Below, piece after piece: positions 1 through 32,250 of a stretch of 34,381 nucleotides of DNA. The stretch lies in contig KZ538299.1 of NCBI GenBank assembly GCA_000934665.2, forward strand, positions 62,001 to 96,381, written 5' to 3'. Under the pieces are notes generated by a model that was given only the letters and a program-made list of their open reading frames with translations, was not told where the DNA came from and made no database searches. A program made the translations under genes and the position numbers. Every line of letters begins with the position of its first letter. Position 1 is the first letter of the stretch. The DNA is from Catajapyx aquilonaris (Eukaryota).

Positions 1-3000
1 GCGGATCTGCAAATAATGTTTCCATGTATTTGACCCGTTCCTGTTGGCACAGCGGTACGCATTTTCCATCTTATTTATTATGTCATGCGGATGATTTTTT
101 TTACGAGCTCAATCGAGTGCGCACTCACATTCGCGCAGCTACATTGTTTCGACAACAATGTTGCCGCTGAGGTTCGTTCCAGATCATTGGCACCGTCGCA
201 AACGTAGCGTTGGAAACAGCTATCATTGATCATTCCAACCGTGGAGGCTGCGCGAACTGTGGTGCGCACTCGGTTTTGTTTGTTTAAAAAAATCCATATA
301 ATCACCTTTGATCCGTCAAGCTCGATGACTCCGTATTTGTACTGAGGTCCTGCACTGACTAGTCTCTTCTGTAACTCTCGGACACTGTCCCACATGGCCA
401 GGTTGTGCTTTCGAGAGTGGGTCAGCACCAGAGAGTCGTACAGGACAGTCCAATTAAAAGACATGGGACGCGCCCCGACGCCTTCAATCAGCGGAAACGT
501 CACGTGGAAAGCGGCGTCGTCGCACACAACCAGCGGATACGAGACGTCCATTTCCGGAACCATTTCCTATATACCAAAAGATTCAGCGCTACAGTTATCG
601 TGCACGTGTAAGGACAGAGTCACGCCTAGCCAATTTTATATACCTGAGATCCGGGCACTGTGACTTCTCCGGATGCGAACTGCGCTTCGTTGCTGGCTGA
701 ACTCCGGACTGAATCTCTGAACTTCAGCTTGACGCCAGCGTCTAGCCCGGCCCCGACGCCCAGGGTGACCAGCACCTTTCGTCCGCCGAAAATACATTTG
801 GGTTCGTCACCCAGAAGCTTGGAAGTGTCGTCGAAGATGTCCCGACAGTCTCTTGGTCCTTCGACTGGACGGTCGAATTCAATGGAAAGTCGACGCCAGT
901 CTTGGGTCAGTCTCACGGAGGTCACTACTGGAGGACCTGACGCCTCATCAGTGCTGTTGGTCCTATTGTCCACACTAGAAACGGCTGGAAGACACTGCAT
1001 TGTACCGTCCACCGACACCTCTCGGTTGGAGACACCGCACTGCTTTGCACAATCTCTGGTGACAGGTGATGTCACACACATGCCACAGTCCCAATACGCA
1101 TCTGAGGATAAACGAAGCGTTACTTTACGAGCTCAGCCAAGTGCGCACCCACACTCGCGCAGTTCTATCATTGCGCATGCTTGCTGCGCAGACATCATGC
1201 GCAATGTGCGAGTGTGGGTGCGCACTCGGTTGCGATCGTAAAAACAGTGCTCATACTTCCATTCGGTTGATTGTTGCAATCTGTTGGCACGTCCGGCGAC
1301 GCATTTTCCCATTGTAGGCCCATCACAACAATGCTGTCCGACATGGGCGATCCTTTTCCGCACATCTACGTCATAAATACACTATAGTGAACTCGTTGCC
1401 AAAATCAGTATGACAGTGACAATCAATCGACTTTCAATAAGGCGGTCATACTATTGTTCATGCATATAGATGGAGCATAAATCATCTGCACACTCTCAGT
1501 TCGTGCGAGGGATAGCGGTACTATCAGGTCGGACAAACATCCGACGGAGAGAATAAGCGGATTAGGAGAAAGATTTATAGTTGAATGCGGGTATCGGTGT
1601 TCAAAGCTCGTATATGTTTTACAACACCATTGATTTCTGTTGCATTTTTGTTATTATTTTAAAATTGGTGCAATAAGCAAATCGATTTGGCATTTTATGT
1701 ACCTTCCCGCAGTTTGGTAGAAACACTGCCATGGTCTCCGCAGAGTCGTCAGCTGCTGTGTCCCATGCTGCGAAAATTAGTCGCGTGCTTCTCATCGCCT
1801 GCACCCTGTCCCATGGGGGTGTCCCTCCGGGGTCAGGGTTGAATCCAGGGGCAGGGACGAACCTCAGCTGGTGTCCGGGGCCTAAGACCGAGGCTGTCAC
1901 GGTCAAAGATGACCTGGAACAGATTGTTAAAAGGTGGGAACAAACAAACAATATTGTTTGTCCAGGCTTTTGTTCGTCGTACCTTTGCGAAGAAGAGTCA
2001 TCAGAAAGGTCGAATATGCCTTCGAATGTTGGTGCGATACACAATGCAGTTGTTATGTCCTCTGGGGTCAGTCCACTGGACAGTTGCGTCCAGGACTGAC
2101 CATCTGATGACCACTGCCACTGTCCCAGGGAGAGGTCCGGACTGCAGGACAGGACGACCATTCCCAGGTTGTCCCCAGAGAAGAACCGACCGACGAAACC
2201 GGACACCACGAAGGGAGACCTGTCTGGTACCCTGGACAGTCTTGGCACCATACCCAGGTGGAAGCTCTCGTATGGTTCTGGGTACGTGGAGGTTCTGACA
2301 AGAAGAAGAAAAAAATGTGACAAAATTAATTAATCGAGGCAATAAAAATACTGACAGGGCACAGTGCGGTGCATTTTCTAAAATTATTATTATTATTATT
2401 GCAATTACATATTAGGGAAAGTGTATGAGAAGAAATCATATTATACTGTATAATAGGATTATTTTATACCAGTTTTATATATACAGTATATGAATTATTA
2501 GAGTAGTTTATGATTTATGTTATATATGCTTATATAATCATTTATACATTAATGTAATATTTTGATAACTTACTGTTGCAGAAGTCGCCGGGAAGTTGGC
2601 AGGCCTTCATCACAACCCTGCATAAAAAAAAGAAGACAGTAGTCCTACTTACTGTACATTATGAAAAATTTTTATTCGTTTGTTTGTGTGTAAATATATT
2701 ATTTGCCTTATTATCTGTTTGTCAGCTGTGCTTCTTCATCTATTACTTTTGTTCATCTATTTTCGAGATTTATTAATGTCGACTTATTTTATTTACTCGT
2801 ACAGTATACATTCATTATTATTACCCATTGCAATTTACTTGTTGCTTATGTATTGTCGTTGCTTATTTTAGCCTCATCAGAATGAAGGATTAATCGCTTC
2901 ACTATCATGCGATTCCTCATGATATGCTCATTTGCGATAGCAGTTAAGTGCCCTAATAAAATTTATAATATGTTTCTATCATATAGGCCTACAGATTATC

Positions 3001-4576
3001 ATGAAAACCCGTTATTTTCGCTTGAGACCCTTGCAAGTGACATGCATTTATTTTTAACTTTCCGCTTTCATCAGAGTGACGGACGTTTTACATGGCATGG
3101 GAGGGTAGCGTCTGCCCTAAATATATCCAGGTCATTTTTGATGCCGGGTTACTTTTAAAATAATTATTAATCGCCGGTTGCGCCCCTGAAGGTGATACAT
3201 AAAATAAATGTAACTAAATCTTTCCACAACTTTGTGCAATAATCAACACTCAATTTCTATATCAGTAATTATGTGGTAATTATAGGAAAGTTAAAAAGTG
3301 TTCGTTTGTCCGTTAAATGATAATGACGTCACAATAAGCAACAATAATTATTATTGTCCACAATTTAACCAGTTAAAGGCTTGTGACATTTATCTGGTTG
3401 AATAATACTCATGCTTATAGCTCTTGGTATTTCCACGTAATTAATAAATTATTACAAGCTTATGAAATCGGACTGTATTGACTGCAGCACTTGATTAGGA
3501 AGTGCGAAAATTCAGGGATTTTTTTTTTTTTTGCTGTTAGTTACGGCATCGGTTTGTTAGTTCGCATGTTCCGGTCCGAATTATTCCATCGGGTTGATAG
3601 GCCCTTTCAAACCGGCATATGAATTAATAATATCACGATGGGGTGGATTTCCACAAGGGAATTGTTTCGAAGGGGGGGCTGGGGGTGGAGATAAACATTG
3701 TCATGAGACACGTGTTGTAGCCCCATGGATACTGTTCGCGATATGGGGCCCAACTTTTGCGTGATGGAATTTAGATTCGGCATGAATATGAAGCAAGCAT
3801 GTTTTCCATGAAATTTTACCCGATCCGAACAATATTACGATCACAATATTATGTTGCTGACTCCTAGTAAGCAAAATTCATTTCCATTGCTTATAAAACA
3901 GTCCAACTGATTCGTCCGGTTTCATTTAGAGTTAGTTGTGGACTAATCAGCTCATTATTAAACAGCTAATTAGTTGTCAAAGACTGCTAATATGATATGG
4001 AAATTATTGACTGTCTTTTTTCAAACAATGATTGTTGCATTTTTAGGCATTCGTTGTATTTCATGCCCCTTAGAAGTAATTGCTGTAAAGTTGTAACTAA
4101 TAAAGCGGCGTTTAATAAAATCTCTTACTAAAACTGCATTCTCAACTGGAGCACAGTGCATCCTCATTAATTAGCCCAGATAATTATCTGTGCACTTGTC
4201 CAAATGTTAGATTTTTTTGAAGTTATTGTGTTTGTTTTTAATTCGTTTGTAAAACTAAATACTTTAAAAAAAATTTACTAAAATAATTCGGCATGGTTTA
4301 ATTACAGTCCTGCTGTATAACAATTTTGCAATAATATGTAACTTGTTACATGCAATAAGTTCGGTGCACTGAGAATAAGTTCAGTAACCTGATCGACCCT
4401 GAGGAGCATTATACTCATTGCATATACTCTGCTATTTTTGGACGGCACGTCAGTAATTATTATTGCACTTACCTTGCCTTGATTGCAGTCTTTTTTCTCC
4501 AAAATAATTGCGGAGTAATCCCTCGCACTGAGACCCACATGGTGAGGAGGCACCACAAGCACAAGCAACAGGCCAT
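1..4576 (-). CDS. Uncharacterised secreted/cell-surface protein, REJ/PKD1-like (5' part; runs off the left edge of the window)
   Basis: Exons 4576-4473, 2294-1983, 1913-1703, 1365-1257, 1101-644, 566-306, and a next exon starting at 6. All introns are GT-AG with consistent phases (2,2,0,1,0,0), giving about 485 aa without stops. N-terminus MACCLCLWCLLTMWVSVRG looks like a signal peptide. It is followed by GQWQWSSDGQSW...LRFVP...LIFAAWD, then DCNNQPNGNAYWDCGMC...DCAKQCG, then PVVTSVRLTQDWRRLSIEFD...C..IF...LG..PKC and YPLVVCDD...GVGARPMSFNW, which recall the N-terminal part of REJ-domain proteins. The family call is by motif recollection, not a search. Confidence 0.72.
100..290. mobile_element. 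Non-autonomous inverted-repeat element (MITE-like), copy 1, intronic
   Basis: Left arm tttacgagctcaatcgagtgcgcactcacattcgcgcagc (100-139) pairs imperfectly with gctgcgcgaactgtggtgcgcactcggtt (247-275). Same terminal sequence as the element at 1124-1242. Confidence 0.6.
1124..1242. mobile_element. MITE-like palindromic element, copy 2 of the same family, intronic
   Basis: tttacgagctcagccaagtgcgcacccacactcgcgca at the left is the near reverse complement of tgtgcgagtgtgggtgcgcactcggttgcgatcgtaaa at the right. Fills most of the 155-nt intron 1102-1256. Confidence 0.65.
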
Positions 4577-5367
4577 CTGAGCAATAAATTTTAAACAATT
4601 ATTATTACAGGACGTGTTTAAAAAAGGTAACAATAGAGAGGTGTGAAGTCTCATTGTTTGTAATGACAATAGAGAGAAAAAAAAAACCAGACGTACTGTA
4701 TAAAGAAAAGCGTCCAGCCAGACGACCAAGCATGTTTTCGAGTCGGATGCGTGACACCAAGTGTCGAAGCGGGTCACTTGTAAGTCAGTGGTCATGCACG
4801 AAGGATCGTCATGGTGACCAGCGGTCAAACAAGCCCGGCCATTTTTGGCGGGTCCGTCTCAATGGGGGCGGTATGTGTGTCGTGTGTAATGCGGGTTGTA
4901 TATCATTGGAAATCGATTTTTTTTTCTTTTTTTTTCGAACCATCAGATATGTCACATTTGTTATCTGGGCCAGCATTTTCCATTTCGAGTTGTTTTTTTA
5001 AATATTATAAGGGTTAAAACAAACTGGCCCAGATTTTTTTTTCGTCATATACGTCTTGCGATGCATTAAAATGTCACACATGACTTATGAACCTTCATAT
5101 TGTCGCCTGATTTATTGCAAGTGCTGGTGGTTATTAATAAATTGTACTGTAAAAGTGGGTTGATAGTGATGACTGTCATAACTCGTATTTATGGGGCGCA
5201 CCTGAATTAATTTTTTGTTTTCTCACAAATCATGCATGGCATGTCGTGTCATAAAGTACCCCAACGGTGGGTGCAATTAAATTCAAAATTGATTAGCAGA
5301 ATTGCACCATTTCTGTGAATTGAAATGAATGCGAGGCATCCGAATAATTGATGGCCAAATTGAATGG

Positions 5368-5426
5368 AAATTAGTCGGAATTGAGACGAATGAAACCGTT
5401 TCATTCGTCTCAATTCCGACTAATTT
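5368..5426. repeat. Perfect inverted repeat, 29-bp arms with 1-nt spacer
   Basis: aaattagtcggaattgagacgaatgaaac-c-gtttcattcgtctcaattccgactaattt; arms checked base by base. Confidence 0.95.
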
Positions 5427-6639
5427 GAATGAAGCGCATAGGACTTAATTAATTGAATTGAGTTGATGAATTTTCATTTGATTGTCATCACACAATGTGA
5501 ACTATTTACTCCATATTTTTGCTTCTGGTTTTGATGTAAGCTGATCTCTACATGTCAGAGAGTGACTCCGACAACTGATACCACCGGGTTGATGTCGCGT
5601 GTGCATACAAAATGGATGAAGATTTTTGCTTCTTGATCTTTTTTTTCCTTTTTCTTTTGAAGTTTTTGCCTGTTCCATTCACTTCCGTCTATGAAGTATT
5701 CATATAAGACTACGGCAGAGAATGAGGATGAAGTACTGTCCTATTGTGAAGCACTTACGCGGACCTACTATTCACAATGTTGCTCGTTTAGTGACATGAA
5801 GATATGTGCCTGTAATGGAAGCTATTACAAATCGGGGGAAGTGGAGCAGATGTAGCCTGTATAATATTTATTGCAAAAGGATAAATCCGCCACATACGGT
5901 CTATACACTTTTTGTTATGGTAGTTCTCCAAGTCTTGATATTTGGATTTATTATTTGGGACTACCACTTGTGTCGTTTGGACGAGAAGTTATTATTATAC
6001 CTAGTGCTATAATTTTGTGAGGTGAAAGATTTGTAGATGAAACTTTATTGCACGAGATGTTTTTCGTCGACAATGATTAATGCAAGGTTCTGTATATATG
6101 TATCTTTTATAAAAGCATACATAATTCAACGAATAAGCACTTCCCTACATATTCCATTATCACTGTGTAAACTCTAATCAGGGATATGACTTGTCTATAT
6201 ACACTACTTGTAGGCAGTAGGATATACATTGCACATTGCAACTGCAACAGCACTAGAATATTGGCCAACTCAAGTTGGATTGCTATTATTATTAGCAACC
6301 CATAACATGACAATATTTCCTCAAATTCTCTCAGGGAAACCTGTACATGAGGTAAAATAAATAATATTGATTTTTAAAAAATCATATTGCAATTTTACGT
6401 ATAATTCAAAAAGTGCCGGGTATCCTGAAAGAGTTCAAAGTTGGGTCACTAGATGCCACAAGTGCTACGCTAACTTGTGGCCACCTGGCGTCCAAATCTC
6501 AAACCAAAAGCAAGCACAAAAAAAAAAATCAAGCGACCACCAATTCCGTCAATTAACTAATAAAATATAATATAATATAGGTAATTTTAATCGCAAATTT
6601 CAATATCTAATTAAATATAAATGGCTAAGTGACCGTTAC

Positions 6640-6830: not shown

Positions 6831-7065
6831 TTTTTGTTTGTTGTTGTCTGTTGGGCGGGTCAACCAACCGGTAACCAAGCGAGGGTTCAGTGTGTGTTTG
6901 GATCCGGTCGGGCACTGTCGTGTTCGAACCCCGCGCCTCCCCAGCTGTCTCGCTCTCCCTCCACTCAAAGGCTCCAGCCACCAATTTCTTCGTGTGAGAT
7001 ACACTTCTCATATAAATAATAATAATTTCGTGTGCGTTCTGTGCTGAGCAGCTCAGACTTCCAGG

Positions 7066-12690
<5,625 letters not shown>

Positions 12691-14576: not shown

Positions 14577-17531
<2,955 letters not shown>

Positions 17532-22499: not shown

Positions 22500-22900
22500 C
22501 ACGCAGTTCCGTTGCAATAAATGCAGCCAATCAGCGAAACACCCGCTACAACGTACCCTCAACGTTCTTTTTTTTTAAATGACACCACATGATGTCACAT
22601 AATCTACCGATCGCAAATCCCCTTCGAAATATGAGAACCCGCCATCGCCGCATAATCCATAAATTGGCCTAACAACAGGTCAATTGTGGAATTTGCGCGG
22701 AATTTGCGACATGTGTTTCTGTCCGGTATAAATGACGTCACGACTGCGCCACAGTCCATGATATAACGATGCTCAACGGTTCAACGAAATAGCCACGCCA
22801 CCAGATGTCACTAGTGGCGCTCTATTGCGACCAATCCCACGGGCACATCCACGCCACCTATCGGGCAAAGGTGTGAGGCGAGCGGTCCGTTGTGCCGTTG
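22500..22900 (+). promoter_or_regulatory. Probable CSE1L promoter
   Basis: CCAAT boxes at about 22527 and 22831, TGACGTCA (CRE) at 22733-22740, GC-richer than flanks, upstream of the ATG at 23079. Confidence 0.5.
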
Positions 22901-23078
22901 TCTTGTGGTTTGATCATCCTTGGCCGTTGCCTTGTTTTTGAATGGCTGCCGGTAAAAGGCACGTTTTGTTCCGTTTCCTCCCCGTTTCCCCTCCGATCCG
23001 GTGATTAATCCCAGGGTTCGACGAGCCCTGTGCCTCCTCCGGACCAGACAGAAGGAAGAGAGAGAGAGAGACAGAGAG

Positions 23079-26000
23079 ATGGAGGTGAGCGACGGGAACC
23101 TGCAGACCCTCGCCGGGTACCTGCAGCAGACCCTGTCCGCCGATGTTAACGTCAGGAAGCCCGGTATTACATTTCACTCACTAATTATTAACCATTCGTT
23201 TTATAAACTCTCTTCCCTCGTGTGGAAATGACAACAACAACAACACCAACAACAACAACACTAACTAATACAATCATTCAATAACTAATATAACAATCAT
23301 TGCAATAACTAATATAACAATCATTCAATAACTAATATGACAATCATTCAATAACTAATATGACATAAATCAATATAATAACTAATGTGACATAAATCAA
23401 TATAATAACTAATGTGATAACAATCAATGTAATGACTACAGGGTGGTCGGTAAATGGCGCACAAGCTTCAGGAAGCTTGTGCGCCATTTAAACCGACCAC
23501 CCTGTATAATCGATATAATAATAATAATAATAATAATAACAATAATAATAACAATAATAATAAATGTAATAATATACAAGATGTGTAATTTTACCTTGTT
23601 CAAGAAGCAGTTGCAAGTAATGATGAGTTAATTAAGACGAATTTTTAAATTATTAATTAATAGTATTAATTACAGATATTGCAAGCAGCAGCTACAAGGT
23701 ATCATAATTATTGCTACCTTATTAAATTACTACTGATTAGTATTACGGCTATTACAGTCGCGTGATAATGAATTACTAATTGTTACTACCTTATATATTT
23801 AAATTACTCATTACGTGCAGTAGTTACAAGTGTAGTTAATTGCTAATTCTTGACGTGTTGTGCATTGCTAATTGCTTATTTAATTGCAGCTGAGCGTTTC
23901 TTGGAGTCCGTGGAGGTGAATCAGAACTATGCGGTGCTTCTGCTTCATCTGGTGGCGAAGGATGACGTGGACCTGACGCTGCGAGTGGCTGGAGCGGTTG
24001 CCTTCAAGAACTACGTGAAGCGCAACTGGAAAGTCGTGAGTGTCTTGCGTTTGCGCCGGGTGTATACATGCAAATAATTAATTTGCATTTATAATTGGCA
24101 GGATGAGGATGCTGGAGATAAGATTCACGTGGCGGACCGTGAGCTGATCAAGAAGAACCTCGTGGGTCTGATGCTGAAGAGCCCTGAAGCGGTTCAGAGG
24201 CAGCTGAGCGACGCCATTACCGTAATCGGTCGAGAGGATTTTCCGGACAAATGGCCTGGACTGCTGCAGGAGATGGTGGAGAAGTTTGCTTCAGGTACGA
24301 CCTTTTAATTGACATAAACTGACTCCGTACATTACAGCTGATTAAATGCACTACATTATTTCGATTTTAGGTGACTTCCATGTGATCAACGGCGTCTTGC
24401 GTACTGCGCACTCAATATTCAAGCGTTATCGCCACGAGTTCAAGTCGCAATCGCTCTGGACTGAGATCCGACATGTGGTTGATAAGTTCACCAAGCCTCT
24501 GACCGATCTGTTTGTGGTAATGAACACAATTATTCACGTTCTCCTTCACGTACCTAACGACTAAGTTTGTAATTTCAGGCCACTTTTGAGCTGGCGAAAC
24601 AACATGCGGAGAATGCAGATGCCCTTCGCATCATTTACAGCTCGTTGATTCTTATCTCCAAGATTTTCTACTCATTAAACTTCCAGGCGAGTAGCATTGT
24701 GTGTGTCACTTATGACCTTCTCATGATGTATGTGTTTGTAGGACCTTCCTGACCTGTTTGAGGATTCGATGGAGGTGTGGATGAAGCATTTTTTGGAGCT
24801 TCTCTCTGCCGACAACAAGCTTCTGGCTAGTCCAGACGAGGACAACGCTGGACTCGTGGAGCAGCTGAAGTCGCAAATATGCGACAATGTGGGCCTGTAC
24901 GCTCAAAAGTATGACGAGGAGTTCCGACCGTACTCTCCCCCTTTCGTGAAGGCCGTTTGGGTCCTGCTTGTCATGACTGGTAATCAGCCGAAGTACGACT
25001 TGGTAAGTTCGAAGCGACTCTGTATGACGGATTGGTTCTAATAATTTGTTGACTGTTGCAGCTGGTGAGCAATGCACTTCAGTTCCTCGCGCTTGTTGCC
25101 GAGCGTCAGCATTACCGCGAACTGTTTGAGGACCAGCATGTGTTGAGCAGCATTTGCGAGAAGGTGGTCATACCCAACATGGAGTTTCGGCTGTCGGACG
25201 AAGAGCTGTTCGAGATGAATCCGGAGGAATTTATTCATCGTGATATCGAAGGCGCGGATGTGGGGACTCGCAGGAGAGCCGCATGCGAGCTGATCCGTGC
25301 GCTCAGCTGCTTTTTTGAGGGACAGATCACGACCATATTCGGACAGTACGTACAGATCCTTTTCGCCCAGTACGGAGAGAATCCGGCGAGAAACTGGAGG
25401 AGTAAGGACGTGGCTATCTACTTGGTCACCTCCTTAGCCGCAAAGGCTCAGACCGCTAAGCACGGGACCACAAAGACCAACCAGCTGGTCGATCTTGTCG
25501 ACTTTTATAGGCAGCACATTATACCTGATCTGCAGAACACTAAAGGTAATGTTGCGTTACGTACTTTGCGATGTGATAACCTGATCTTGCTCAATTCCAG
25601 TTAATGAGGTTCCGGTTCTGAAGGCTGCGGCTGTGAAATATGTCATAGTGTTTCGATCTCAGCTGCCGACTGAGCTTGTGATCGAATCTCTTCCGTATAT
25701 TGTGCACCTGCTGGGCAGTGAAAGCATCGTAGTTCACTCCTATTGCGCAAGTGCAATTGACAAGATCCTGATGCTTAAGGCGTCGGATGGATCTGCCCTG
25801 TACGTAAATGCGGATCGATATGCAATTATGTTGTTAACGCGCTTTTTCACAGGGTGAAAGCCGAGACCTTGTCGTCGGTTGCGGAACGACTGCTGACGAA
25901 CCTGTTTGCAACCCTTACTCTGCCTGGATCGGAAGAGAACGAGTATGTGATGAAGGCCGTGATGCGAGCATTCTCGACGCTGCAAGAGCGGGTTGTTCCA

Positions 26001-27455
26001 TACTTGCCGCATCTCCTCCCGAAGATAACGGAAAAGCTGATCGCCGTAGCCAAAAACCCATCTAGACCGCACTTCAACCACTACCTTTTCGAGACACTTG
26101 CCCTTTCGATCAGGTGACTTATTTCATTCGCGTAAAAACCAGAACGTTGCAAAATAATGTGTGCTTTCAGGATTGTTTGCCGGTCGAATCCGACTGCAGT
26201 TGGGTCTTTCGAGCAGGCTTTGTTCCCCGTGTTTCAAGATTTGCTGAGGCAGGACGTGCAGGAATTTGTTCCGTACGTGTTCCAAATCCTGTCGTTGCTT
26301 CTGGAAGTCCACGAGACGAGCCACATTGGAGCCGGAGAGGCGAAGGGAATTCCGGACCCTTACATGGCCCTGTTCCCGTGTCTTCTCATCCCAGTCCTGT
26401 GGGAAAGACCCGCGAATCTCCATCCGCTGGTCAGACTGCTGCAGTCGTACATTTGTACTGGTCCGCAGCAGATTATGGAATCAAACGGACTGGTAAGTAC
26501 GGCTTGCGCTCGTACGTTATGAAAACTACTTGTACGTTCTTTTCCAGAGTGGTCTGCTGGGCATCTTTCAGAAGTTGATCGCCTCGAAAGCTAATGATCA
26601 TGAAGGTTTCAACCTGATCCAAAGCCTGATTGAGTTCCTACCTGTGGACAAGCTGTCTCCTTACCTGCACCAAGTGTTGGTGCTCCTTTTCCAGCGGCTT
26701 TCCTCCTCAAAGACGACCAAGTTTGTCAAATGCTTCATCGTTTTCCTTGCCGTCTTCACCATCCGGTACGGAGCGTCCCAGCTGGTCGAACTAGTCGACA
26801 GTATACAGGCCAAGTGAGTATCGCTGAAAATATGTTTCGCTTGTCATCGCCATGTTGAAATTTCCAGAATGTTTGGAATGGTACTAGACCGACTGGTAAT
26901 CGCTGATGTTCAGAAGGTCTCGGGACAGCTGGATCGGAAAATATGCGCTGTCGGAATCACCCGAATGCTCTGCGATTGTCCAGCTCTTCTCAACGGCGAC
27001 TACGTCAACTTTTGGTTCGTATTCGACGCCATTGCGACGACAACTTTTCCAACTGATATTAAACTGTTGCAGGCCGCCTCTCCTGCAAGCGTTGATTGGA
27101 TTGTTCGAACTTCCTGAAGACGAGAGTGCTCAAGGTGACGAGCATTTCGTGGATATCGAGGACACCCCGGGGTACCAGACGGCTTATTCGCAGCTCGTTT
27201 TCGCAGGAAGAAAGGACCGAGATCCGCTCGGAGGTCAGTCACTTTCTATACTACAAGTCGGAATTATGAAGAGGCGTAATTGCATGTTGCTTTCCAGGCT
27301 CGGTGAGTGATCCGCGTCTGTACTTGGCTACATCGCTTCACAGCCTGTCCCAAGCGAATCCAGGCCGTGTGGCGCAAATGGCCAGCACTTTGAGCCAGGA
27401 AGTGCAAAACTGTATGCAGAGATACCTCCAAGGAGCCAACCTCACATTGGCGTAA
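23079..27455 (+). CDS. CSE1L: Exportin-2 / CAS (importin-alpha export receptor), 978 aa, 14 exons
   Basis: Exons 23079-23163, 23890-24035, 24102-24294, 24371-24516, 24579-24686, 24742-25002, 25062-25545, 25601-25799, 25853-26113, 26171-26492, 26548-26813, 26868-27014, 27073-27233, 27298-27455 (2937 nt). Conserved motifs FKNYVKRNW, FKRYRHEFKS, NEYVMKA, NPSRPHFNHYLFE, EFVPYVFQ, FQKLIASKANDHEGF, IEDTPGYQTAYSQL. Confidence 0.96.
23232..23575 (+). repeat. AT-rich minisatellite (about 23-26 bp units) plus (AAC)n and (AAT)n tracts in CSE1L intron 1
   Basis: ataactaatataacaatcattca-like unit about 7 times (23260-23425); (AAC)n at about 23232-23260; (AAT)n at about 23515-23570. Confidence 0.85.
23437..23506. 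mobile_element. 70-bp minimal Tc1/mariner-type MITE (TA-CAGGGTG...CACCCTG-TA)
   Basis: tacagggtggtcggtaaatggcgcacaagcttc-ag-gaagcttgtgcgccatttaaaccgaccaccctgta; arms pair except for a 2-nt indel. Confidence 0.8.
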
Positions 27456-30222: not shown

Positions 30223-32250
30223 ATGGAGGGCCTGGCAGGGGTTGTGGCCGTGTCCAGTTGCGGGGAGGGCAGAATGAAGGTGGGGCTGCCCCTGGATCAC
30301 CGCCTTGTGCAGCTGCAGTGCTGGCCGCACCTGCTCTTCGGGATGGAGTCCAACCTCGTGCCCAACACCACCATCAGCCTCTTGCACTCCCTCGGTAAAT
30401 TACGCTGCTGCGGAATAATAATTGTCGGAAAATTATTGGTGTTTTCCCGAGTCCAGCAATGGTTTGACCTTCGACACGGTGACGTCTTGGATGCCCTAAC
30501 CACTGATAAGACATGGTCTCACGAGTGTGTCATATTGCATGGGCTGTCCTTGTTGGCTGCTCACCAAGTCTTCCGCAGATATCGCATTTTGACATCAGGA
30601 AGCAACATTTTTTTCCCGTTGAATTTGTGATTTTAATGGCCAGATTATGGGTTTACAACTTGCGGAGATGACCTTGACATGATTGCTGTGCCAGCATTAA
30701 TGTAACTTGGAATCCAGCTAATGCTTATTACTACATGTTTTGCACAGGGTACGAATCATACACGGAACAGATGCGGAAAAGACAGGTGCAAATTCACATT
30801 CGTGAAATCTAATGAGGTTATCACGATCAGTTTGTAACGGATCAGAATTGCCGATTTGGAGCATAAACTGCGAGGATATGAAGCAAGAGATTTTTTTTAA
30901 ATCTACGTCCGAATCAGAACATGCCGAATTATTTTGCGGTTATTCGTGATAATGATAAACTCTCTGAACTCGTGTGCAGCGATGCAGATCGACTTCACAA
31001 ATGTCAGATTTTCCTCCTCTTTACGTGTATGAACTTGCTGAAATTGTCGAATGTCATCCCATTCTAGCGATGAGAGATTTTAACATGCCAAGCTCCGTAA
31101 TTAATATTATGTGCTTGCGATCCCAGGCAACTGCCTCGGAGTGGAGCTGGATGTGAACCTGTGGGCATGGCTCCTCTGGCTGTTCACCCCTGTGATCGTG
31201 GCGTTCCTTCTCCCGTGGCTCATCATGGTCTTCATATACCTGTCCTCTCTCTTTGTCTACATCTACAAGCTCCACCGACATCGTCTCAGGACAGCTTATG
31301 AGATTGACTTTTTCGAGGGGGCCAGGCAGACCCTGGCCGCGCTCTGGGATGCGCAGGGATGGATCTGGCATGGCTACGAGATCCACGGACTAGACAGGAT
31401 CCCGCCGGATAGTGGAGCTCTCATTGTATATTATCACGGGGCTATCCCCATCGACTATTACTACGTAATGGCCAAGTCCATTCTCTACAAGGGAAGGCAT
31501 ATCAGGTGAATGCTTACACTCCGGTGGTCGGACCATTTTGCTAATGTCGCGCTTCAATTTGCAGATCTGTGGGTGATCGATTCTTGTTCCGCATGCCTGG
31601 TTGGGCCGGATTGATGGAAGCCCTCCAGGTTATTCCAGGAACGGTGCAGAGTTGTGCGAGTATACTGCGGAACGGAGAGCTGCTGGCCATTGCTCCAGGC
31701 GGAGTTTACGAGGCATACTTCAGTACCGAATATTACAATCTGCTGTGGAGGAAGAGGATAGGATTCGCTAAGGTCGCCCTGGAGGCCAAAGTGGTAAGTC
31801 CGCAAGGGCTGAATTGTGTACGCAAACTTTATGTCCGCACTTTTCAGCCAATTCTGCCGATGTATACGGAGAATCTCCGAGAAGCATTTCGAGCGCCGCA
31901 GTGGGGATCGTCATTCTGGCGCTGGTTGTACCTCAAGACTCGTCTCCCACTCATTCCCCTGTATGGAAACTTTCCAGTCAAGATGCGAACTTTCATCGGG
32001 GAACCAATTCCATACGACCCGAGTCACACTCCAGAGCAACTTGCTCATAAGGTACTATAAAATTGGTGCATTCACGCGTAGAATTGGTGGCCGAATGTTC
32101 AGTTCAGTCCTCGAATTGTCACGTAATTTGTTGCAGACGCAGCTGGCAATAGAAGGTCTGATCAAGGATCATCAGTACGTCCCAGGAAGCATTTTAAGGG
32201 CTCTTTTAGCGCGAGTGTACGACTGGAAGCCGGGAAAGAAGACGTCGTAG
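30223..32250 (+). CDS. TMEM68: TMEM68 (DIESL) PlsC-family acyltransferase; 365 aa from ATG 30223 or 325 aa from ATG 30343
   Basis: Coding exons 30223-30394, 31127-31505, 31565-31793, 31848-32051, 32137-32250 (GT-AG, phases consistent). Motifs WDAQGWIWHGYEIHGL, YYHGAIPID (HXXXXD), LAIAPGGVYEA, GFAKVALEAK, PLYGNFPVKMRTFIGEPIPYD, and an N-terminal hydrophobic segment. Confidence 0.93.

Follow-up and report, generated by a model that had tools for sequence, protein, structure and literature searches.

The left end of a 34,381-nucleotide (nt) stretch of the Catajapyx aquilonaris genome (assembly GCA_000934665.2, contig KZ538299.1, positions 62,001 to 96,381; the whole stretch is hereafter called the window) raises two questions: what kind of protein its minus strand encodes, and how a domain resembling the repeats of large bacterial adhesins came to be part of it. 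The original prediction, made from the DNA letters, joined six exons into a chimeric surface protein with a signal peptide, an adhesin-like module, DC..CG repeats and a REJ/PKD1-like region. Our gene model puts about 21 exons into a single intact gene, the predicted product of which has about 2,290 amino acids (aa). With a probability of roughly 0.65, we read this product as a REJ-GAIN (PKD1/egg-jelly-receptor) glycoprotein with type I membrane topology, which would serve as a long stalk for adhesion or ligand capture and not as a channel subunit, whatever the origin of its module. The predicted order is signal peptide, a single bacterial-type module, a single degenerate DC..CG repeat, REJ, GPS, stalk, SEA-like segment, one transmembrane (TM) helix and tail.

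Exon chain and domains of the predicted protein

The six proposed exons (minus strand 4576-4473, 2294-1983, 1913-1703, 1365-1257, 1101-644 and 566-306) do join in frame into 485 aa, all with AG/GT ends, and every motif quoted for them is found in the sequence. Extending the model to the left, a check that the original prediction had proposed, lengthened the gene by about 7.3 kb on that side. With the left flank the chain comprises 20 exons and 2,204 aa, without stop or frameshift, separated by 19 GT-AG introns of 59-1,855 nt; a likely last exon, its acceptor chosen among weak candidates, adds 88 aa. Exon 306-566 contributes 87 aa leading to the REJ region, in frame and with no Pfam match of its own, and the exon that follows it begins at window position 6 (minus strand, 1-6; contig 62006), from where the gene continues leftward to about contig position 54689 (9906-2589 of the left-flank piece L002) through REJ, GAIN/GPS, a 2,286-nt mucin-like exon, the SEA-like segment, one TM helix and the tail. 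There is no N in the gene or its flanks, and the contig is gapless. Small elements resembling miniature inverted-repeat transposable elements, with terminal inverted repeats of about 30-45 nt, lie in three introns (window 95-291 and 1124-1244; L002:2936-3176).

REJ is present in the gene, as had been foreseen, and so is GPS, but REJ lies only on exons left of the window, two of which match Pfam REJ (PF02010) with 56.5 and 28.3 bits, both above the cut-off of 25; the in-window exons gave no Pfam or NCBIfam match, including none to REJ and none for the module, and the REJ exon found nothing significant among PDB sequences. GPS (PF01825) follows REJ with an E-value of 5e-4 and 21.0-22.2 bits, just below the cut-off of 22.5, its motif being split by an intron. 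It is probably not self-cleaved in this protein, because N-I-G stands at the position of the H-L-T/S tripeptide, which PMC9672506 gives as the consensus of a cleavable GPS. The last GPS strand, by our reading, crosses the junction into the 2,286-nt exon, which encodes a stalk of about 750 aa with 40% Ser+Thr and 25 sequons. About 890 aa separate GPS from the single hydropathy TM peak (approximately aa 2165-2188; residue numbers are those of model B of the 5' end, below), which is followed by a short proline-rich tail. No PLAT appeared in the Pfam results of the TM and tail exons, there is no channel part, and a different gene comes next. The TM exon (L002:3577-3192) may contain a 60-nt in-frame intron, the frame being kept either way.

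In described REJ proteins GPS immediately precedes the first TM helix (PMC1934368, PMC9672506), and the far longer spacing found here would agree with two genes, namely a secreted REJ-GAIN protein like SpREJ10 and a separate membrane mucin; together with a locus that is not expressed, we hold this to be very improbable. The GPS and stalk exons are only a 59-nt GT-AG intron apart, in frame and with the GPS strand continuing across it, the stalk exon starts without a hydrophobic leader, and neither stop nor frameshift interrupts the 2,204 codons.

The membrane-proximal part of the single predicted chain holds a GSIIV motif across an exon junction and matches FAZ1_cons at 18.6-19 bits, below its cut-off of 27.5; analogy with the GSVVV of MUC1 suggests a SEA-like segment. 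Two points tell against that assignment: it was built on the sub-threshold FAZ1_cons match and the motif, and the locus was absent from the matches when the genome was searched exon by exon with Pfam SEA (PF01390).

The DC..CG region was compared with a profile built from 69 repeats, which came from 63 IMG/VR loci and were collected with the pattern given in the original prediction. Once spliced it scores 20.2 bits against 13.0 for the best of 2,000 shuffles, and the 1257/1101 junction of the proposed 109-nt exon is supported because the joined repeat reaches this score, whereas exon 1101-644 alone yields 9.9 bits. The region therefore matches a profile of natural repeats, yet it is one degenerate unit with the start of a second and not the array that had been described; among the IMG/VR open reading frames (ORFs) with the pattern, 24 of 63 hold at least two loose copies. 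Protists and marine invertebrates also have REJ proteins that carry DC..CG repeats. Pairing of this repeat with the adhesin repeat was not encountered: no DC..CG was seen in 145 proteins, and the 63 ORFs with DC..CG repeats contained no adhesin repeat. Exon 644-1101 carries, besides the remainder of the repeat recognised by its profile score, a linker and an unnamed domain of about 110 aa preceding REJ, without Pfam or NCBIfam match; Atlas gives haptophyte clusters at 0.84-0.85 as its top three for this domain, which is no more than a lead, and nothing matched the exon among viral contigs.

Elsewhere in the genome REJ matches fall on three contigs (C394:23048-27000, C603:11000-21000 and C4613:7000-14000), and two of these loci, on C394 and C603, look like canonical genes of the REJ-GAIN-TM (PKD1-like) type, the one on C603 with Pfam PLAT. 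Residues 1-1275 gave a single weak match to the ORFs of these two (26% over 68 aa, E 0.015). An undescribed receptor or adhesin family had been suspected; the gene is indeed distinct from the canonical PKD1-like genes, but it appears to be single-copy in this genome, which does not establish a family.

Polycystin-1 and PKD1-like proteins, including those two, likewise have REJ followed by GAIN/GPS; they possess 11 TM helices, PLAT after TM1 and a channel domain, in contrast to one TM helix and neither PLAT nor channel here. Closer in plan are SpREJ1, SpREJ8 and SpREJ9, single-pass sea-urchin REJ proteins of the PKD1 family (PMC1934368), which share the signal peptide, REJ, GPS and one TM helix and, in SpREJ9, also Ser-rich regions. 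Their described tips are C-type lectin/EGF domains, whereas here the tip consists of the bacterial-type cadherin-like domain and the DC..CG repeat; in addition, a mucin-like stalk of about 750 aa and the SEA-like segment stand between GPS and the TM helix, and GPS lacks H-L-T/S. A coral REJ protein belongs to the multi-pass kind, according to PMC4890752. MUC1, a transmembrane mucin whose SEA domain is autoproteolytic (PMC9564314), similarly combines a Ser/Thr stalk, a GSVVV site and one TM helix, but it has neither REJ-GAIN nor a cadherin-like tip, and the SEA fold is only putative in the present protein.

The 5' end deserves separate consideration. When the splice sites of the region 2295-6600 are ranked (189 AG, 206 GT), the 44-nt segment 2617-2574 takes first place with its acceptor and seventh with its donor; it has 57% GC, compared with 27% and 18% in its flanks. 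It is probably an exon missed by the original prediction, and therefore the frame of the 104-nt exon 4576-4473 (donor 1st of 206, acceptor 5th of 189) is in doubt. This exon would supply the signal peptide with its hydrophobic core either in frame A, from ATG 4576, or in frame B, with codon log-odds of 1.2 and 6.8 and 11-residue hydropathies of 2.5 and 2.4, respectively. In model B a candidate, uncertain first coding exon (4697-4733, minus strand; ATG at 4733, donor 3rd of 206) supplies the first 12 aa of the signal peptide, the frame stays open through 4576-4473 and 2617-2574, and the mini-exon (2574-2617) restores the downstream frame. Model A' needs, besides the mini-exon, a speculative 22-nt micro-exon (2356-2377, minus strand) that has AG/GT ends, is followed by a 61-nt intron and restores the frame. 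Codon scores are split, one 5' exon scoring better under B (6.8 vs. 1.2), the other under A' (6.9 vs. -0.2); the codon model was trained on this same gene, which makes the scores of the core exons circular. Models A, A' and B each yield a hydrophobic leader and an identical downstream frame; the signal peptide of the original prediction, read from ATG 4576, may be in the wrong frame given the 44-nt exon.

The N-terminal module and the bacterial adhesin repeat

The module is spread over two exons and probably part of a third. Exon 1983-2294 encodes its first half (VS..G, G.VV, GQWQWS.DG..W) with an insertion of about 30 aa, and scores 16.8-19.3 bits alone; exon 1703-1913 encodes the second half (A.VL, LRFVP..FN, F.AWD), which alone reaches 14.1 bits against 7.4 for the best of 1,000 shuffles. 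The probable last strand lies in the 109-nt exon (1257-1365) ahead of the start of the DC..CG repeat; the hhalign match extends to it at low confidence, and its junction doubles the repeat score. The 69-nt in-frame segment 1982-1914 between the two halves is probably an intron, as its splice sites and a coding score below zero suggest, the profile scores with and without it (33.3 vs. 33.2 bits) providing no discrimination.

The proposed likeness of the module to repeats found in large bacterial adhesins is borne out by profile scores, by hhalign and by the separate matches of both halves. Against a profile that combines 191 non-redundant repeats of 119 proteins, the planctomycete protein P0005 being left out (439 proteins matched its repeat region, 120 of them among the matches listed), the spliced module scores 33.2 bits, and the best of 2,000 shuffles 5.9. 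With the same profile hhalign assigns 96.5% and a score of 62 over 132 columns with collinear motifs, as compared with at most 18.8 in 60 shuffles, and a second profile gives 95.4%. A profile combining both repeat sets gives the module 29.0 bits; the runner-up among 3,704 ORFs of the same genome scores 5.4. The repeat has 36 columns with a conservation of at least 70%; the query covers 29 of them and is identical at 17 of these 29; the best single bacterial repeats show 26-35% identity over 85-150 aa. Animal CSPG repeats served as a control: the module scores -1.6 bits on a profile of 14 of the 15 CSPG matches of the genome (one with a stop was excluded), these repeats reach at most 5.5 bits on the bacterial profiles, and the module neither matches Pfam CSPG (Cadherin_3, PF16184) nor figures among the 15. 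The CSPG-repeat genes used lie at C639:40700-47500 and C678:51200-54400. On these sequence comparisons the homology of the module to the bacterial repeat is real but distant.

The bacterial repeat, of about 155 aa, shares with the module the motif series VS..G, G.WQ.S.DG..W, A..L, LRF.P..FN, F.AWD. It is widespread (loci L021-L084, proteins P0005 and P0027-P0145), is represented by no model in the copies of Pfam and NCBIfam used here, and is carried by giant adhesins with DUF4347, Calx-beta, VCBS, Cadherin_4/5 and Big_9 from Planctomycetota, Azospirillum, Magnetococcales, cyanobacteria and others, whereas the module is a single copy with cysteines, introns and insertions of about 30 and 14 aa in a eukaryotic type I membrane protein. 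The structural model of the bacterial repeat (pLDDT 96) is that of a cadherin-like sandwich: 38 of the 50 top rows of neighbours are animal cadherin domains, the best at Z 6.6 with a root-mean-square deviation of 3.1 over 104 residues, a Z below 8 indicating a common sandwich and not close kinship. The profile of the repeat found PDB sequences at a best E of 0.16, and Foldseek returned nothing at E <= 0.001 for either the bacterial or the module model against PDB, or for the bacterial model against BFVD.

A phmmer search of the module against 1.84 billion representatives retrieved 11 matches, which by their sequence and Pfam domains are nine Ig-repeat proteins, one BNR propeller and one true relative, P0005, a Calx-beta protein that carries the very repeat described in the original prediction. 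A taxon was recorded for four of the ten phmmer clusters checked, and was bacterial in all four. Atlas placed bacterial clusters at 0.92, a weak result with low recognition, and its matches with taxa were all bacterial. A metagenome scan with the module confirmed one of 95 pattern matches, an intronless bacterial-type repeat (L085), which was found through the WQ motif and is not independent. A tblastn search of plasmids with the module gave no match; nor did the module frame and exon 1101-644 in word-indexed protein searches, which covered entries no longer than 2,000 aa, a limit that the predicted product exceeds.

Several results pull in the opposite direction. The 191-repeat set derives from a protein chosen for its match to the module. 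On an independent GTDB set (96 repeats from 63 of 64 loci in many phyla) the module scores 16.2 bits, on the AWD-type subset of 32 repeats 15.5 bits with 41% in hhalign, and alignment A3 against the unspliced module frame gives 64%. The module model, built from the unspliced frame with the intron in and the last strand out, has a pLDDT of 63 (above 80 in the motif strands) and a best Z of 4.6. The module is a single copy without tandem array, DxD is absent, NDAP is altered and most acidic linker residues are lost. Ten of the 11 phmmer matches are unrelated proteins drawn by WQ.S.DG, which shows this motif to be unspecific, and an Ig profile gives the WQ motif alone 22.9 bits.

These last results would suit convergence at the level of motifs, the module then being an unrelated Ig-like or CSPG-derived animal domain with an Asp-box-like WQ.S.DG..W hairpin. 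Masking the WQ motif lowers the module to 5-13 bits, and CSPG4 occurs at low Z in the fold lists of both models. On the other side, the C-terminal half, which lacks the motif, retains its 14.1 bits and 73% in hhalign with -1.4 on the Ig profile, the motifs are collinear over the 132 columns, and the CSPG profile is negative, leaving convergence unlikely in our judgement.

Origin of the module

Distant homology leaves two main routes for the module, and we lean slightly towards an old eukaryotic family, patchily kept, over bacterial transfer. Acquisition from a bacterium in the arthropod lineage, followed by fusion to a REJ-GAIN gene and later gain of introns, appears possible but is the less probable course. 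In its favour, all whole-domain relatives detected are bacterial-type (one of 11 phmmer matches, the Atlas taxa and 63 of 64 GTDB loci), the module does not match the CSPG repeats of its own genome, and contamination is excluded by the two to three spliceosomal introns in the module and by the gapless contig. The identity of the best single repeat is too low for a donor to be named, and the domain preceding REJ has an Atlas lead, no more, to haptophytes. Moreover, the bacterial family is very large and the single-sequence search recovered just one of its clusters, so that equally distant eukaryotic copies would escape it; because of this, absence of the module from eukaryotes does not follow from the search. 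Within the genome itself, single-sequence search and about 150 kb of DNA revealed no paralogue of the module. Algal receptors also carry cadherin-like domains, and PMC12757656 raises the same question of origin there. The genome is that of an arthropod, with 66 matches to the cuticle family PF00379. Contamination was considered and rejected on the introns inside the module, the gapless contig and the animal genes nearby.

Those neighbours include, on the plus strand, a tandem pair of beta-tubulin genes (window ~6900-12690 and 14600-17531), the first with long introns, one of which is absent from the second, as well as CSE1L (Pfam Cse1; window ~22900-27310) and a Cep192-like gene (Pfam Cep192_D4; L003:1-3700). 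A plus-strand gene at window 31100-32250, without Pfam match, is presumably a TMEM68-like acyltransferase. Two tandem paralogues on the minus strand (contig ~48800-54360; L002:1-2260 and L003:6700-10000) resemble ADAM10/Kuzbanian metalloproteases; three exons tested gave no Pfam match, and the likely zinc-site region is without HExxH. These copies are possibly diverged and catalytically dead.

Proposed function and significance

In the favoured reading of one long REJ-GAIN membrane protein, the single module would form the binding tip, carried well away from the membrane on REJ-GAIN and the glycosylated stalk, and its ligand would be of glycan, matrix or microbial nature. GPS would remain uncleaved, shedding, if any, would take place at the membrane-proximal GSIIV site, and the proline-rich tail could recruit adaptors. 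As to binding, RapA2, a bacterial cadherin-like domain of a family different from that of the module, is a Ca-dependent lectin (PMC10574481), though the module lacks most of the acidic linker residues; as to shedding, force-dependent release is known for SEA domains (PMC10556640). A bolder version would have an arthropod lineage capture the bacterial repeat as a REJ-GAIN tip and swap GPS cleavage for a mucin stalk with SEA-type shedding, creating a class of releasable microbe- or glycan-binding receptors; we consider it doubtful, and less probable than the transfer by itself.

A single-pass REJ base was already known; its combination with a bacterial-type tip was not found described, nor was the whole architecture or the ~155-aa repeat, in the searchable literature, mostly without subscription papers. 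The common bacterial adhesin repeat is now defined, with a copy present in an animal gene, and merits a family model of its own. Beside the canonical PKD1-like genes, the locus adds a REJ-GAIN architecture in which GAIN would sit in the middle of the ectodomain, with a mucin/SEA-like stalk below and a cadherin-like tip above, and which offers a natural test case for the role of a non-cleaving GAIN far from the membrane. If the transfer is true, a bacterial adhesion module has been built into an animal receptor; if it is not, the module would belong to an old eukaryotic family of surface proteins worth cataloguing.

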